In this document: positions 11,576 through 17,012 of the stretch, in pieces
How positions within the stretch are numbered: position 1 is the first letter of the stretch
Layout of the letters: each line of letters starts with the position of its first letter
Notes under the pieces: model-generated
What the model was told of the DNA's origin: nothing
What the model saw: the letters and a program-made list of their open reading frames with translations, nothing else
Database searches by the model: none
Program-made: the position numbers and the translations under genes
Origin: Bacteroidota bacterium
GTDB lineage: Bacteria > Bacteroidota > Bacteroidia > Bacteroidales > GCA-2748055
Direction: 5' to 3'
Assembly: GCA_039714655.1 (NCBI GenBank)
Contig: JBDLIX010000001.1
Span: forward strand, 16,878 to 80,877
Length of the DNA stretch: 64,000 nucleotides

Positions 11576-12289
11576 ATGCGAAATACCATGGAAATAAGAC
11601 ACACCATAGAAATCCTGACTAAAGATATACAAGATATAGAAAAATTGGTCGGGAACCTTCAAAATTCTCAGGATGGTTATGCCATCGAACTGGACCTTGC
11701 TCTCTCAAAGCTGAGGAACGTTTACGAGATCCTCATGATGATCAAAGCAGACAGACTACATGAGATACTCTCGCTTGATAAACTCTCCGAACCTCCTCCG
11801 GTCCCACAACCACAGCAAGCTCCTCAAACCATATCACAACCGGATCCAGAACCAATACCACCACCGGATCCAAAACCGGATCCACAAACGGCATCTCCAA
11901 GCCCCCAGCCTGCAGTGGAAAAAAAAACCGTCCCAGCAGATCCTGAGGATAAAAAGGAAGCCGAAATAGTTGCTGAGAAGTTCTCTGCCGAATCAAGTAT
12001 TAATGAGAACCTGGCCGGACAACGGGGGAGAGAAACAGACACCAAACTTATTGGACAGCCCATTGACAACATCGGTCGGAATATTGGCATCAACGATAGG
12101 TTCCTTATGATTCGTGAATTGTTTGATGGAGATGCAGATAGTTTTAGCAACCTGGTGAGCAGTCTCGAAGGATCCGGAAATTATCAGGAGGCATTCGGTC
12201 TACTGGAAAAACAATTCACCGGCTCCATGGAACATGAAGGTGTCGAGATCCTGTCGGGTCTGCTCAAACGAAGGTTTAGCCAGGATTAA
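11576..12289 (+). CDS. Hypothetical protein with a central Pro-rich linker
   Basis: 237 aa with an N-terminal helical region, a PxP-rich low-complexity core, and a C-terminal 'GINDRFLMIRELFDGD' domain. The other-frame ORFs here are low-complexity shadows. Confidence 0.5.
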   Translation: MRNTMEIRHTIEILTKDIQDIEKLVGNLQNSQDGYAIELDLALSKLRNVYEILMMIKADRLHEILSLDKLSEPPPVPQPQQAPQTISQPDPEPIPPPDPKPDPQTASPSPQPAVEKKTVPADPEDKKEAEIVAEKFSAESSINENLAGQRGRETDTKLIGQPIDNIGRNIGINDRFLMIRELFDGDADSFSNLVSSLEGSGNYQEAFGLLEKQFTGSMEHEGVEILSGLLKRRFSQD

Positions 12290-12969: not shown

Positions 12970-13869
12970 CTAATATGGCCTCAGTCTGCCCGAACCAGTG
13001 ATCTGGGAACTGATGGTAGGTGCGCCCCGATAGATGATATCCCCAGATCCGGTAATAGTCGCATCCAGGAGTTCAGCAGCCCATAAAAAGATTTTTCCAG
13101 ACCCTGTATGTGTGGCGTCCACATCATCAGCCAGAAGTTCAAGCCCATCAAGTATTCCGGATGAAGTGAGGGTATAATCAGCAATAGACACATCTCCATC
13201 CAAATCGATCCTTCCCGACCCACTCAGAATTGCATTAACAACTGTGCCATCAGTGATGGAAGCTCTCACCCGGCCCGAAGCACTATGACTTATGGTCACT
13301 TCACTGGATCCAAATACAGTACCACCATCTATGGTACCTGAACCCGACTGCCAGATACTTAGCTCATTCACACCAGATTCAATGACTTCTACAAAACCCG
13401 AACCCGTGTTACTAAGGATAGCGTTATGAGCATTGACCGCCTCGATACTTATGTGTCCCGATCCGGTATTGGAGCACTCAAAAACCGGAGTCTCGGCCAC
13501 ATCCGCAATTACTTTCCCCGACCCTGTAAGTAATAAAGCTTCCAGCTCTGGAAGAGAAACATAAACCTCCACAGGAGAGTTAGATCTGTAACAGCTCCCA
13601 TTCACTAGTTCAACCATCAGGGTATTTCCCGAAACATAAGTTTCAACAATGGGAATCAGATTCTCTTGCGCCACTACTTCCACATAAAAATCATCCGATT
13701 GCGTCACGTAGACATCAAAGGAACCATTGTTGCTTATCCCTGTAAAACCATCCACTGTGCGTATCTCTTCAACAACAGGACCTGCACCATCCAGGCATGG
13801 CCCAAAATAATAACAACCCGTATAAGCCAACATCGATATCAGTACTCCTGTGATATATAGTTTATTCAT
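12970..13869 (-). CDS. DUF2807 / head-GIN-domain (putative adhesin-like beta-helix) protein
   Basis: 299 aa with a signal peptide and many periodic 'GSG' turn motifs (GSGKV, GSGHI, GSGFV, GSGTI, GSGRI, GSGKI, GSGDI, GSGRL). Confidence 0.7.
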   Translation of the reverse strand: MNKLYITGVLISMLAYTGCYYFGPCLDGAGPVVEEIRTVDGFTGISNNGSFDVYVTQSDDFYVEVVAQENLIPIVETYVSGNTLMVELVNGSCYRSNSPVEVYVSLPELEALLLTGSGKVIADVAETPVFECSNTGSGHISIEAVNAHNAILSNTGSGFVEVIESGVNELSIWQSGSGTIDGGTVFGSSEVTISHSASGRVRASITDGTVVNAILSGSGRIDLDGDVSIADYTLTSSGILDGLELLADDVDATHTGSGKIFLWAAELLDATITGSGDIIYRGAPTISSQITGSGRLRPY

Positions 13870-14002
13870 GATTTCAAAATTAAATTAAACCAAACCACCT
13901 TTTCTCAGTCATAAAGACAAATTTAAAAACCAAAAGATGCATCAGCAGGTTCAAAAAACAGGTTGCCGAAAGGAGATGGTATTAACAGAAGCTCATCCCA
14001 AA

Positions 14003-14040
14003 GTACGTTTTCGAACACTCATGTTTCGCTTTCGTTCAGA
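14003..14040 (+). promoter_or_regulatory. ECF-sigma-type promoter-like block, copy 1 (GAAC-N16-CGTTC)
   Basis: 'gtacgttttcGAACactc...CGTTCaga'. By hand alignment 33 of 38 nt match the block at 14666-14703, including an 18-nt perfect run. It lies about 120 nt upstream of the ATG at 14162. Confidence 0.35.
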
Positions 14041-14161
14041 TTTATCACATCTTAACAAATGAAAGATAGGCTGCCATCTATCTGTTTCACTGTTTTTTAC
14101 GAAGTTTGGTACGGGTTATGTAAAATATATATTAAATCGTGAATACGACATACGCAAGATC

Positions 14162-14584
14162 ATGAAAACAACAAAATTAGTTCTAAGCATCACACTGGTT
14201 GCACTGGCAACTGCCGCTATCGGACAACGTACCTTTGTTTTAGAACGGTTGTTCCCCGACCGAGATCATCAGGAGGTAATTCTCACTTCAGAAAATCAGA
14301 CTGAATGCAGTCGTGTTGAATTCTGGATTCACAACCTTCAAGGTAAGTCAAGCAAAAAAGTCACCTGGGATGTTTATGAAACTCCTACGGTAACCCAAAC
14401 CTTTTTCGTTGAACAGGTCGAGGTCATTTATGAAGAAGAGGTTGGTCTGGAAAGCTGGATGAGTAGTCCCTTCGAAAGCAGTTTCGCAGAAGAGGATATA
14501 ATACTTGAATCATGGATGACCATCCCTTTCAACGAACCTGAGGTTATGGAGATCGAAGAGTGGATGACCACAGTCTGGTTCTGA
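14162..14584 (+). CDS. Secreted acidic E-x-W-M repeat protein, paralog 1 (unknown family)
   Basis: 140 aa with the signal peptide MKTTKLVLSITLVALATAAIGQ. Motifs present are EFWI, LESWMSSPF, LESWMTIPF and EEWMTTVWF at the C-terminus. It is followed by its own intrinsic terminator. Confidence 0.65.
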   Translation: MKTTKLVLSITLVALATAAIGQRTFVLERLFPDRDHQEVILTSENQTECSRVEFWIHNLQGKSSKKVTWDVYETPTVTQTFFVEQVEVIYEEEVGLESWMSSPFESSFAEEDIILESWMTIPFNEPEVMEIEEWMTTVWF

Positions 14585-14622
14585 TTCCATCCAGGAACGC
14601 ATGTTCCTGCCACACTTTTAAA

Positions 14623-14653
14623 AGGCCATCTCAATTGAGGTGGCCTCTTTTTT
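14623..14653 (+). terminator. Intrinsic terminator after paralog 1
   Basis: 10-bp stem 'aggccatctc/gaggtggcct' (one G-U pair), a 4-nt loop 'aatt', then 'cTTTTTT'. Confidence 0.8.
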
Positions 14654-14665
14654 CAACATCTCGGT

Positions 14666-14703
14666 GTACGTTTTCGAACACTCCTGTTACACTAACGTTC
14701 AGA
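14666..14703 (+). promoter_or_regulatory. ECF-sigma-type promoter-like block, copy 2 (GAAC-N16-CGTTC)
   Basis: It has the same 18-mer 'gtacgttttcgaacactc' and 'cgttcaga' with identical 16-nt spacing. It lies about 120 nt upstream of the ATG at 14827. Confidence 0.35.
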
Positions 14704-14826
14704 AATAAGATATTTTAACAATTGTTAAATTAAATGCTTAATGATTGATATTATGCGCTTTATGGAGTTTGGCATGAATTATGATAATTGGTGAGGGAAC
14801 ATTGAAACTGAGAAAACGCAAGAGTC

Positions 14827-15327
14827 ATGAAAACAACAAAATTAATCTTAAGCATCGCACTGGTTGCACTGGCGACTACCTCTTTTGGACAACTCTCATC
14901 TAATAAAGAGAGGTCGTTCAACAAGCAAAACCATAAAGTTAAATATCTTACTACAGATTATTGCAGCAAAGAGAGTAGCCGGATTGAAAGCTGGATGCAC
15001 GATCTTCGCAGCTGGTCAAACAACAGGGCTTACAGGAACACATACATTGCCCCCGTTGTAACCAGAACCATTAGAATAGAACAAGCTGATGTTCTATATG
15101 AAGAAGACCTTGGACTGGAAAACTGGATGACCACCCCCTTCGAATGCTGTGTTAATGATGAAAGCGGATTTGCCGAAGAAGAGCTCAGCATGGAGATCTG
15201 GATGATTACTCCCTTTGAAAGCTCCAATTTTGAGGAGGAACTGATCCTTGAATCATGGATGACCACCCCTTTCCTAGGCACTGAAGCAATGGAAGTAGAA
15301 GAATGGATGACCACAGTCTGGATCTAG
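14827..15327 (+). CDS. Secreted acidic E-x-W-M repeat protein, paralog 2 (unknown family)
   Basis: 166 aa. Its signal peptide is nearly identical to paralog 1 at the nucleotide level. Motifs present are IESWMHDL, LENWMTTPF, MEIWMITPF, LESWMTTPF and EEWMTTVWI at the C-terminus. Confidence 0.65.
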   Translation: MKTTKLILSIALVALATTSFGQLSSNKERSFNKQNHKVKYLTTDYCSKESSRIESWMHDLRSWSNNRAYRNTYIAPVVTRTIRIEQADVLYEEDLGLENWMTTPFECCVNDESGFAEEELSMEIWMITPFESSNFEEELILESWMTTPFLGTEAMEVEEWMTTVWI

Positions 15328-15364
15328 TTCTATTCCAGCGCTTGCGTACACTATATAATCAAAA

Positions 15365-15389
15365 GGCCGCCTTTGCGCGGTCTTTTTTT
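15365..15389 (+). terminator. Intrinsic terminator after paralog 2
   Basis: Stem 'ggccgc/gcggtc' (one G-U pair) with a 6-nt loop, followed by a run of 7 T. Confidence 0.7.
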
Positions 15390-15473
15390 ATTCTCTTCCA
15401 AATGCAAGCCTGCAATGAGTCACGAAGTGGCGATTTCGTTTCTTTGTTCTTTTCTCGAATGAATATTTAAAAC

Positions 15474-17012
15474 CTAGAACGGCGCTGGTTCATCAAAACC
15501 GTTGTTCATTCCAATATCGTTATTCAAGACCTTACCCCCTCCCTCTTCCTGGTTCATCTTCGAGCCAACAATAAATCCGTTCTCATCATCTTCCACCATG
15601 GCCAGCGTATCATCCAGATCCACAAACTTGGCATACTCCCTTATAAACTTCAATTGAACATCTCCCACCGGGCCGTTCCTGTGCTTGGAGACAATGATCT
15701 CGGCAATCCCCTTCAGTGAATTTCCCTCTTCATCCACATCGATACCATAGTATTCGGGACGGTGAATAAATATTACCAGGTCGGCATCCTGTTCGATAGC
15801 CCCCGATTCTCTAAGGTCAGACAATTGCGGTCGTTTGTTCCCGGAGCGCATTTCCACACTACGATTAAGCTGGGAGAGGGCAATGATGGGTATGTCAAGC
15901 TCTTTGGCTACACTTTTCAGTGACCTTGAAATGTTACTCACCTCCTGCTCCCGGCTGCCGGAATCCTTGGAGCCGGTCATCAGCTGCAGGTAGTCAATCA
16001 CCACAGCCTGGATGTCATATTTTTGTTTCAAACGACGGGCTTTAGCCCTGAATTCAAAAATGGAAATGGCGGGGGTATCATCAACGTAGATGGGAGCCTT
16101 CTCAAGGTCCTTAATCTTATATTCAAGTTGTTCCCACTCATAATTTTCCAGTCTCCCGGTCCGGATCTTGTCAGAAGCCAGATGGGTCTCCCCGATAATC
16201 AAACGGTTGACTAGCTGGATGGAAGACATTTCAAGTGAAAAGAATGCCACAGGCCGGCTGTGATCCACAGCCATATTCCTGGCCATTGATAGTACAAAGG
16301 CAGTTTTCCCCATGGAAGGACGGGCAGCCAGAATAATCAGGTCCGATTTCTGCCATCCCGAAGTGAGCCGGTCAAGCCGCGTATAACCCGAGGGTACACC
16401 GCTCAGGCTATCCTTGCGTTTCCCTGCTTCTTCAATCTGTTCGATAGCTGTTTTAAGCAGGTTGCCAAGCTTTACAGTCTCCTTTTTTATATGTCCTTCC
16501 GCAATATTCAGCAACTCCCTTTCGGAATAATCCAGAAGATCATCCACATCTGTACCTTCATCAAAAGCCCGTTCCTGGATATCTGAAGATACCCTTATGA
16601 GCTCCCGCTGGATGTGTTTCTGAGCCACAATCCGGGCATGGTATTCAAGGTGGGCGGCCGAACCTACCCTGGAGGTAAGCTGAGAAATATAAACAGCCCC
16701 TCCTACTACCTCAAGTTTCTCCAGTTTCCGAAGTTCCTCTGTAACCGTTAAAAGGTCTATGGGCTTCTCCTGCTGGGAAAGAGACTGGGCCACTTCATAA
16801 ATCTGTTGGTGCGCCTCCTTATAGAAACTGCTGGGTTCAACGATGTCCAACACTGAAAGGATGGCATCCTTTTCAAGCATGATTGCTCCCAGTACGGCCT
16901 CCTCCAGGTCCATTGCCTGGGGTGGGATTTTTCCGTAATCAAGAGCTATGGCTGGATTCTTTTTCGGGGTACTGACCTGTTGTTTTGCCATGTAGAATTT
17001 ATTTGGGCTCAT
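15474..17012 (-). CDS. dnaB: Replicative DNA helicase
   Basis: 512 aa with Walker A 'ARPSMGKTAF' and 'IPIIALSQLNR', plus a DnaB N-terminal domain. Confidence 0.93.
   Translation of the reverse strand: MSPNKFYMAKQQVSTPKKNPAIALDYGKIPPQAMDLEEAVLGAIMLEKDAILSVLDIVEPSSFYKEAHQQIYEVAQSLSQQEKPIDLLTVTEELRKLEKLEVVGGAVYISQLTSRVGSAAHLEYHARIVAQKHIQRELIRVSSDIQERAFDEGTDVDDLLDYSERELLNIAEGHIKKETVKLGNLLKTAIEQIEEAGKRKDSLSGVPSGYTRLDRLTSGWQKSDLIILAARPSMGKTAFVLSMARNMAVDHSRPVAFFSLEMSSIQLVNRLIIGETHLASDKIRTGRLENYEWEQLEYKIKDLEKAPIYVDDTPAISIFEFRAKARRLKQKYDIQAVVIDYLQLMTGSKDSGSREQEVSNISRSLKSVAKELDIPIIALSQLNRSVEMRSGNKRPQLSDLRESGAIEQDADLVIFIHRPEYYGIDVDEEGNSLKGIAEIIVSKHRNGPVGDVQLKFIREYAKFVDLDDTLAMVEDDENGFIVGSKMNQEEGGGKVLNNDIGMNNGFDEPAPF

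Follow-up and report, generated by a model that had tools for sequence, protein, structure and literature searches.

A 64 kb stretch of a metagenome-assembled Bacteroidota genome (contig JBDLIX010000001.1; called the window below, meaning all 64,000 nucleotides analysed) carries two adjacent genes for small acidic proteins that repeat the motif E-x-W-M-x-x-P-F, which we call ExWM proteins. We are very confident that they represent a real family of exported proteins under selection, and this family, which comes from uncultured anaerobic Bacteroidales, is undescribed in the libraries and literature that we searched. Both genes lie behind the same upstream block, better read as the activator site of a sigma-54-type promoter than as a promoter for a sigma factor of the extracytoplasmic function (ECF) class, and the same layout precedes operons for a periplasmic adaptor and a TolC-like channel. 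These observations would be best explained as a whole if the ExWM proteins were outputs of a two-component, sigma-54-dependent system, co-induced with an exporter and serving as multivalent ligands or as cargo of the pump; we advance this explanation tentatively, holding it at slightly less than even.

The two open reading frames (ORFs) were confirmed on the forward strand at 14162-14584 (gene 1, 140 amino acids, MEN8226528.1) and 14827-15327 (gene 2, 166 amino acids, MEN8226529.1), with the coordinates and lengths given in an earlier note on this DNA. Their products, both labelled 'hypothetical protein' by NCBI, are 45% identical overall. Their N-termini, MKTTKLVLSITLVALATAAIG|Q and MKTTKLILSIALVALATTSFG|Q, have the common form MKTTKL[VI]LSI[TA]LVALAT..[IF]G-Q and contain the sole hydrophobic segment of each protein (residues 3-22 by hydropathy). 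The signal region contains no Cys, and hence no lipobox, and shows small residues at -3 and -1 followed by Gln at +1, a residue typical of exported Bacteroidota proteins at this position. Both N-termini look like substrates of signal peptidase I, with a predicted cleavage after ..[FI]-G that would leave Gln as the new N-terminus; the signal peptides would thus span codons 1-21 of gene 1 (14162-14224) and positions 14827-14889 of gene 2. This call, like that of the kinase topology given below, was made from hydropathy and rules.

The mature chains are very acidic, with an isoelectric point of ca. 4.1-4.4 and 25-27 Asp plus Glu residues versus 7-12 Lys plus Arg. Complete [LIM]-E-x-W-M-x-x-P-F units occur twice in the 140-residue protein (L96-F104, encoded at 14447-14473, and L115-F123, at 14504-14530) and three times in the 166-residue protein (L97-F105, at 15115-15141; M122-F130, at 15190-15216, with Ile at the [ST] position; and L141-F149, at 15247-15273). 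The counts of four and five copies in the earlier note are reached only by adding a half-motif of the N-domain (VEFWIH or IESWMH) and the C-terminal E-E-W-M-T-T-V-W copy, which lies at the very end of both proteins (IEEWMTTVWF, 14552-14581, and VEEWMTTVWI, 15295-15324). Otherwise its description of real genes for exported, acidic, motif-bearing proteins was verified in the ORFs, the shared Sec signal peptides and the EEWMTTVW[FI] ends. Its proposal of separate transcription units is likewise sustained, in that each gene has its own upstream block and its own terminator-like hairpin and T-run of the intrinsic type on the same strand, at 14623-14655 after gene 1 (hairpin 14623-14646) and at 15361-15396 after gene 2 (hairpin 15361-15386).

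AlphaFold models showed no compact fold in either protein. The mean predicted local distance difference test score (pLDDT) was 68.8 and the predicted template modelling score (pTM) 0.29 for the 140-residue protein, from an alignment of 97 sequences, and 61.8 and 0.26 for the 166-residue protein, from 33 sequences. In both, the signal peptide forms a confident N-terminal helix; the rest is mostly coil, with a hairpin (140 residues) or a single helix (166 residues) in the N-domain and short, one-turn helices at most S-W-M motifs. From these models, the mature chains are best regarded as acidic and mostly disordered molecules that carry short linear motifs; because the chains are very acidic and predicted to lack a compact fold, the repeats most likely act as independent short linear motifs shown several at once.

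A word-index search retrieved 105 relatives of the window proteins, and a profile search of 1.84 billion cluster representatives gave 482 matches (E ≤ 0.001). All of the latter have at most 263 amino acids and, therefore, the repeats never occur inside larger multi-domain proteins. When 185,579 species genomes were scanned for two consecutive W-M-x-x-P-F codon blocks, the true hits came only from metagenome-assembled genomes classed as Bacteroidota, Bacteroidia or Bacteroidales; matches outside Bacteroidota were rejected as chance matches or non-coding repeats. Genomes often contain several ExWM paralogues.

We derived motif statistics from a non-redundant set of ca. 282 proteins containing 1068 repeat units and 2 to 10 copies per protein. 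Counting from W(0), the repeat shows M(+1) in 98% of the units, P(+4) in 80%, F(+5) in 85%, E(-8) in 76% and E(+6) in 51%, together with L(-5), [LVI](-3) and E(-2). The unit is acidic and ca. 19 residues long, EEEL-x-L-E-S-W-M-T-x-P-F-E, with a modal period of 19 residues (493 cases) followed by 18 (190) and 16 (142), and the last copy is specialised (E-x-W-M-x-A-A-W-I and variants). An optional N-domain of ca. 70 residues is present in the window type and missing from forms of ca. 100 amino acids. Subtypes also differ by extra Cys clusters and by their C-terminus, for instance ..WMxAAWI, ..DDNCSGxLMAAACN, ..SDCLLSCCN or ..CPTCS.

Several lines of evidence indicate that the amino acid motif itself is conserved, and that the repeats are not the result of recent DNA slippage: the median ratio of non-synonymous to synonymous substitution rates between close orthologues is 0.31, Tandem Repeats Finder detected no DNA-level tandem repeat in the window genes, and motif copies are encoded with Ser codons that are not interconvertible (AGC and TCA). 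The selection on the motif argued for in the earlier note is thus borne out among the homologues. So is the absence of a known family. When both proteins and distant members were scanned against Pfam and NCBIfam, only sub-threshold noise came back, and nothing was found in a profile search of the PDB, in Rfam over 13800-15500 or, as regards relevant papers, in a full-text literature search for the motif strings. Two relatives carry a precomputed PF28221 tag, which we discarded as a faint 'VerU3_C' match; this model did not come up in the local Pfam scan.

The two window genes are, from sequence comparisons, old tandem paralogues, because their N-domains group each of them with different orthologues in other genomes: that of gene 1 is 47-53% identical to the first gene of the pair in three other loci (L008, L112 and L007) and that of gene 2 is 43-54% identical to the second gene of pairs elsewhere, whereas the two are only 34% identical to each other. 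In a related genome, the syntenic slot (L005 7532-7810 and L006/L099 1993-2271) holds an orthologue of gene 1 that has shrunk to a 92-amino-acid ORF (MHQQANKIVASGQRTFNLERL...) without signal peptide or promoter block, which looks like a decaying copy; the start of its MHQQ... frame (ATGCATCAGCAGG) is still visible in the window at 13937-13960, upstream of the gene 1 dyad. A third ExWM type found in the same slot (L008 8772-9179, a 144-amino-acid gene in L112, and L081 3497-3826) has a longer, anchor-like N-terminus (e.g. MKNIFTTRVSRIVALGRIFLFSVIIMLISL) and no dyad or sigma-54 promoter, and may be membrane-tethered or transcribed differently.

The block upstream of each gene consists of two dyads, an AT-rich stretch and a sigma-54-type promoter, all on the forward strand. 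For gene 1, dyad 1 lies at 14001-14018 (AAGTACGTTTTCGAACAC; consensus GTGTACG-N4-CGxACAC, that is, TGT-N10-ACA), dyad 2 at 14022-14038 (TGTTTCGCTTTCGTTCA; TGT-N11-TCA), centred ca. 21 bp after dyad 1, the AT-rich block at 14050-14061 (TCTTAACAAATG; family consensus from the alignment, TTTTAACAAtTG) and the promoter at 14105-14121 (TTTGGTACGGGTTATGT; GG at 14108-14109 and TG at 14119-14120), 57 nt from the ATG. The equivalent elements of gene 2 are dyad 1 at 14664-14681 (GTGTACGTTTTCGAACAC), which matches the consensus perfectly, dyad 2 at 14685-14701 (TGTTACACTAACGTTCA), the conserved AT-rich block at 14713-14724 (TTTTAACAATTG) and the promoter at 14768-14784 (TTTGGCATGAATTATGA; GG at 14771-14772 and TG at 14782-14783), 59 nt from the ATG. 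In the window, the dyad GTGTACGNNNNCGNACAC is confined to 14001-14018 and 14664-14681, with 3 matches where 0.31 would be expected, a number reached in none of 100 shuffles. A generic sigma-54 pattern with two mismatches, by comparison, is not enriched in the window (58 matches versus 50.5 expected), and only the family-specific architecture is informative.

This architecture is common to 51 of the 59 complete family genes with enough flanking sequence, which supplied the 51 non-redundant regions of our upstream alignment and include members with as little as ca. 34% protein identity. Dyad 1 (gGTGTACG-tTtt-CGxACAC) sits at the same place in all 51, ca. -162 from the ATG, and is followed by dyad 2 (TGTy-N-C-N-N-TTTCGTTCA) ca. 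21 bp downstream, the two tandem dyads being one DNA double-turn apart. After a gap of 86 nt (± 2) from dyad 1 comes the promoter, TTTGGCAC-N9-TG, at ca. -58 (range 48-63 nt), and the leader AACGCAAGAGTC-ATG stands directly before the start codon. The AT-rich block, placed between dyads and promoter, may be a DNA-bending site. Among 88 distinct promoters, TTTGGCAC is conserved at G 100%, G 100%, C 98%, A 99% and C 88%, with T-G eleven positions on in 100%; this GG/TG spacing is the canonical 11 nt of the sigma-54 -24/-12 elements (TGGCAC-N5-TTGC). The usual sigma-A -7 box of Bacteroidetes, TAnnTTTG, was not found at the right distance in the aligned upstream regions. The region around the start codon is itself conserved at the DNA level (AACGCAAGAGTC-ATG-AAAACAACAAAA; window 14145-14176 and 14810-14841) in all family loci, even at ca. 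35% protein identity, which suggests a constraint on a short leader or on the translation start, or gene conversion.

The earlier note had read this block as an ECF-like promoter, with a -35 GAAC, a 16 nt spacer and a -10 CGTTC ahead of a long 5' leader, and had offered envelope-stress effectors as one of three plausible roles for the proteins. The spacing fits, since CGxAC and CGTTCA are conserved at a fixed 16 nt, and an ECF sigma gene lies ca. 8 kb away in one syntenic locus (L006). However, the site is two-fold symmetric, and its left half TGTACG, which would have no role in an ECF promoter, is as strongly conserved (82-100%) as the right half; the first A of the would-be -35 'AAC' is conserved in only 58%; the would-be -10 CGTTCA reads CGAACA, a palindromic half-site, at the pump promoters described below; and the invariant TTTGGCAC-N9-TG, at a fixed distance from the block (ca. 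86 nt) and from the ATG (48-63 nt), is left unexplained. For these reasons we consider the ECF explanation very improbable, and control of the ExWM genes by sigma-54 and an activator, as judged from the promoter sequences, is probable with good confidence.

Searching 241 million metagenome records for dyad-N84-88-TTTGGCAC, without regard to the gene that follows, we obtained 43 loci. Thirty-three of them are ExWM genes at the expected distance and orientation, among which L135, L138 and L144 show a variant motif, ExWMxDxxxW, instead of P-F; another two (L141 and L151) are genes cut at the contig end with family-like N-termini, and a single one is a high-GC chance match. Five loci correspond to other small secreted acidic repeat proteins, and the remaining two to a gene for a 421-amino-acid periplasmic adaptor followed by a TolC-like gene. 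The other repeat types found behind the same dyad and promoter are RLExMA..TExS..YxAP (L120, L153 and L154), EYNAxxFVE..LExExW (L145) and one further type (L126). Repeat proteins that diversify fast seem to have gathered in this regulon behind one conserved 5' module, made up of promoter, leader and signal peptide.

The adaptor belongs to the HlyD_3/RND_mfp type, and its best NCBIfam match is the adaptor of the darobactin-export ATP-binding cassette (ABC) system, DarC, at 202 bits, below the cut-off. Divergent from the adaptor/TolC operon there are genes for a 459-amino-acid response regulator of the NtrC family (REC, Sigma54_activat, HTH_8) and for a 450-amino-acid histidine kinase. Only residues 6-51 of the kinase are hydrophobic, which implies that it has two neighbouring membrane helices and lacks a periplasmic sensor domain. 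This arrangement of regulator, kinase and adaptor occurs in four lineages, with regulators 77-100% identical and an ABC ATPase added in two of the four. In all four, the region between regulator and adaptor contains two dyads and TTTGGCA[CT]-N5-ATG directed toward the adaptor, which is the promoter layout of the ExWM genes. We therefore consider it likely, from this shared layout, that the ExWM genes are in the same regulon as the adaptor/TolC operon. The link to the envelope that the earlier note had drawn is in this way supported, although by a different route, a sigma-54 layout common with this operon instead of an ECF promoter. These operons also contain two products without known family, a 188-190-amino-acid protein after TolC, with a signal peptide and a beta-barrel-like sequence (L158 6421-6993 and L162 6420-6986), and a 95-99-amino-acid ORF between the ATPase and TolC (L159/L163).

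Co-induction of ExWM genes with a pump fits what is reported for the phylum. In Bacteroidia, an enrichment of sigma-54 promoters is seen ahead of the genes for FtsX/MacB permeases (PMC12316311), and the sigma-54 regulon of Flavobacterium psychrophilum includes envelope stress, the quality control of proteins, and 'exported proteins of unknown function' (PMC9723704). In Porphyromonas gingivalis, the operon most strongly up-regulated upon restoring the HaeS kinase was PGN_0444-0449, which encodes an outer-membrane efflux protein together with an adaptor and components of an ABC transporter (PMC3764172). We did not retain HaeSR as the same system, as neither orthology nor sigma-54 dependence could be established from the papers.

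We propose that a signal in the membrane or envelope would switch on the kinase and its NtrC-type regulator, which, through the dyads and the sigma-54-type -24/-12 promoter, would turn on each ExWM gene as a single unit up to its own terminator. The same dyads, spacing and promoter would drive the operon for the MacA/DarC-like adaptor, sometimes the ABC ATPase, and the TolC-like channel, and ExWM proteins would then be co-induced with a tripartite ABC-type exporter. After Sec export, they would act in the envelope or leave the periplasm through the co-induced MacB-type pump, in a two-step route. Pumps of this type can move Sec-dependent polypeptides as large as ca. 10 kDa out of the periplasm, as is known for STII and dispersin (ca. 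10 kDa; PMC8277102). At their destination the ExWM proteins would be polyanionic multivalent ligands for a conserved partner recognising E-x-W-M-x-x-P-F. That W, M, P and F hardly vary between paralogues and between species speaks for a specific, conserved partner and against a non-specific sponge, and the variation in copy number points to avidity. Multivalent docking is the most plausible reading of the protein anatomy as judged from sequence, yet pump cargo or multivalent ligand, taken as a statement on function, is a possibility that we consider weaker than the explanation as a whole. Weaker still, and rather unlikely in its full extent, is that these genes form a dedicated and so far undescribed output system of uncultured anaerobic Bacteroidales, in which an intramembrane-sensing kinase and a GAFTDA-type NtrC regulator, working on promoters with a non-canonical -12 base, would switch on a MacB-type exporter and a set of fast-diversifying acidic repeat proteins (ExWM..PF, ExWM...W, RLExMA and others) that have a single 5' module in common. 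These proteins would be cargo of the pump and, once outside the cell, would work as multivalent ligands or signals by a new short linear motif, E-x-W-M-x-x-P-F.

A number of observations weigh against this explanation. Eight of the 59 family genes have no such promoter layout, and the base at -12, canonically C, is A in 50% of the 88 promoters, T in 27%, C in 15% and G in 8% (14121 and 14784 in the window). The position-weight matrices were trained on promoters of the family, and scans made with them are partly circular. The sigma-54-contacting loop of the candidate regulator (P0238) is GAFTDA and not GAFTGA, and 119 of its 120 closest relatives have GAFTDA or GSFTDA; these loops and the A or T at -12 are two departures that may be linked. 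No GAFTGA-type regulator turned up when the window and all family loci were searched. Neither rpoN nor the regulator/kinase/adaptor locus was found in the window or in the 8-20 kb around each family gene, no ExWM gene adjoins a pump gene, and we infer that the candidate regulator binds the dyads from position alone. Finally, the repeated motif is not needed for export.

The logic of the proposed system, in which sigma-54 and a two-component system would control small exported proteins and an efflux pump, resembles that of known envelope systems, each of which differs in its parts. For instance, Escherichia coli ZraP with ZraS/ZraR also combines an NtrC-type regulator and a kinase, sigma-54 promoters activated via inverted repeats, and a small Sec-exported protein as the main output. 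Unlike the dispersed, multi-gene, disordered repeat family of ExWM proteins, ZraP forms a folded, helical oligomer, has an LTxxQ motif as well as a metal site, and is encoded by a single gene beside its regulator; furthermore, the candidate kinase has no periplasmic domain and the candidate regulator, annotated as HydG/ZraR-like by the Joint Genome Institute (JGI), reaches 339 bits against a ZraR cut-off of 760. Its best NCBIfam match is PrsR (415 bits), although again below the cut-off (502 bits). In the description by Haft, this NtrC-type two-component system reportedly controls many dispersed genes for small secreted proteins, as would be the case here, but the PrsK/PrsR regulon belongs to another phylum, and ExWM proteins have neither a PEP-CTERM signal nor an associated exosortase. 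The Bce-type modules of Firmicutes pair a two-helix kinase with almost no external loop, similar in topology to the candidate kinase, with an FtsX/MacB-type ABC system; they differ in having an OmpR-type regulator and sigma-A promoters, and no outer-membrane channel or secreted repeat proteins.

Similarities with known proteins are also partial. The cargo of MacB-type pumps (STII with MacAB-TolC, dispersin with AatPABCD) are, like ExWM proteins, small proteins with a Sec signal whose production goes along with that of a MacA-like adaptor and a TolC-like channel; the ExWM genes, however, would be co-regulated with the pump genes but do not adjoin them, and the mature chains are somewhat larger (ca. 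14-17 kDa), acidic and repetitive, without the disulfide knots of STII. The W-x-x-x-F/Y motifs of PEX5 show how several di-aromatic motifs in an acidic disordered chain provide multivalent docking, but this is a functional analogy without homology, since PEX5 is eukaryotic and cytosolic and its spacing is W-x3-F/Y versus W-x4-F. Curli CsgA is a small Sec-exported protein with imperfect repeats of ca. 19-23 residues. It is rich in Gln, Asn and Gly, whereas ExWM proteins are Glu-rich, and their models, with pTM below 0.3, consist mostly of coil and show neither a fold of repeated strands nor a beta-solenoid.

Among other explanations, we consider rather unlikely, yet nearly as likely as a pump client, that ExWM proteins play a periplasmic role like that of ZraP or Spy. 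As stress buffers or feedback proteins (ZraP, CpxP, Spy), they would hold or neutralise cationic peptides or misfolded envelope proteins, or damp signalling. This is consistent with the polyanionic, disordered chains, with the sigma-54/activator logic of zraP-zraSR and the ZraR-like annotation of the regulator, with the assignment of the co-induced pump type to antimicrobial-peptide transport by COG, and with a kinase resembling intramembrane-sensing envelope-stress kinases. Nevertheless, such a kinase offers no periplasmic domain for a feedback protein to bind, several paralogues per genome are unusual for a feedback protein, and the near-invariant W, M, P and F suggest a specific partner rather than a sponge. 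There is also no relation in sequence or fold to ZraP, CpxP or Spy (no Pfam match at E ≤ 1, no PDB match, and models mostly of coil and not of LTxxQ-type helices). We regard as improbable a multi-copy precursor of a signal, a pheromone or a peptide that is made on ribosomes and modified after translation (RiPP), in which the chain would be cut into units of ca. 19 residues, possibly modified at Trp and sensed by the kinase. A near-identical unit that varies from 2 to 10 copies between orthologues, a 5' module kept while the bodies diversify, and a regulon with kinase, regulator and ABC-type exporter that resembles peptide-bacteriocin loci would all agree with it. So would the radical SAM/SPASM gene that adjoins short ExWM genes in 15 loci (L076 3568-5076; also L098, L101, L104, L115, L116 and others). 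We rejected this enzyme as an ExWM maturase, however, because it is found in one syntenic slot only, different from that of the window genes, is convergent with the ExWM gene, and is a TIGR04133 protein (470 bits, cut-off 425) with its own small lipoprotein gene abutting upstream in the same operon; its proximity probably reflects only synteny. In addition, no protease or maturase recurs beside family genes (102 loci, 4 kb), the conserved part takes up 15 of the 19 residues with no obvious processing site, and the products would be strongly anionic.

Two further functions suggested in the earlier note find little backing in the family. Mimicry of the C-terminal signal of outer-membrane proteins, by which an aromatic end would activate or occupy a PDZ protease of the DegS/DegP or Prc type, is in our view quite improbable, slightly less so than the metal-binding role treated next. 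The two window proteins do terminate with VWF and VWI, most members have a specialised last repeat, and no ending is more frequent than WI; moreover, endings such as ...AAW or AAAC resemble the non-polar C-terminal degrons known for Tsp/Prc. The last residue is nevertheless not conserved (I in 85 proteins, N in 45, F in 38, K in 24, L in 18, R in 14, E in 13, and others, among the 282), whole subtypes end in CN (...LMAAACN), CCN (...SDCLLSCCN), PF or charged residues, and no PDZ protease is a conserved neighbour in 102 loci; W-[FI] is common but not a feature of the family. Buffering of Cu(I) or another soft metal by Met/Trp sites, in the manner of CusF, could draw on the W-M of every repeat, on the Glu-rich chains and on the Cys clusters of some subtypes (DCNCCP, DDNCSG..AAACN, SDCLLSCCN). 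We consider it very unlikely, given that each 19-residue repeat has a single Met, that the window proteins contain no conserved His or Cys, and that the Cys clusters, limited to those subtypes, are not part of the repeats. Likewise, there is no match to CusF or to a metal family in Pfam, NCBIfam or the PDB, no barrel in the AlphaFold models, and no metal-resistance gene among neighbours or in the regulon.

The preferred explanation, of regulated outputs co-induced with an exporter, bears on a poorly charted subject, the sigma-54 regulons of Bacteroidota, which have small exported proteins of unknown function as a recurring unexplained part. The promoter grammar described here, with two dyads, fixed spacing and -24/-12 elements with an unusual -12 base, connects a single candidate regulator and a single type of exporter with dozens of orphan genes, and the new family brings a near-invariant 15-residue motif; family and motif are both missing from the libraries of protein families, structures and RNAs that we searched. 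If ExWM proteins were indeed pump cargo or multivalent envelope ligands, two-step secretion through MacB-type pumps would reach a phylum and a class of substrates that are new to it, and the repeat peptide EEELxLESWMTxPFE (cf. EEELILESWMTTPFE) would provide a handle for the partner.

To survey the genomic neighbourhood, we took 102 loci and clustered the ORFs that lie 4 kb or less from their family genes. They define two syntenic slots with no recurrent functional partner. That of the window comprises genes for a thymidine kinase and a 237-amino-acid protein, rsmI, a DUF2807 gene on the opposite strand, one to three ExWM genes, dnaB, also on the opposite strand, and ispE; the other, occupied by short forms, comprises an aminotransferase gene, the ExWM gene, the convergent radical SAM/SPASM gene, an MGS-like gene, yceG and murB. 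The earlier note had asked whether the divergent DUF2807 gene is always adjacent; it is a neighbour only inside the first slot and is missing beside distant members. We discarded it as a functional partner, since this is a housekeeping syntenic block and no TGGCAC is directed toward DUF2807 in the shared intergenic region. Its product (12970-13869) is a GIN-domain protein with an N-terminal Cys. The 237-amino-acid protein (11576-12289), which has a Pro/Gln-rich linker and no family match, is, like the DUF2807 gene, conserved in the ExWM syntenic block.

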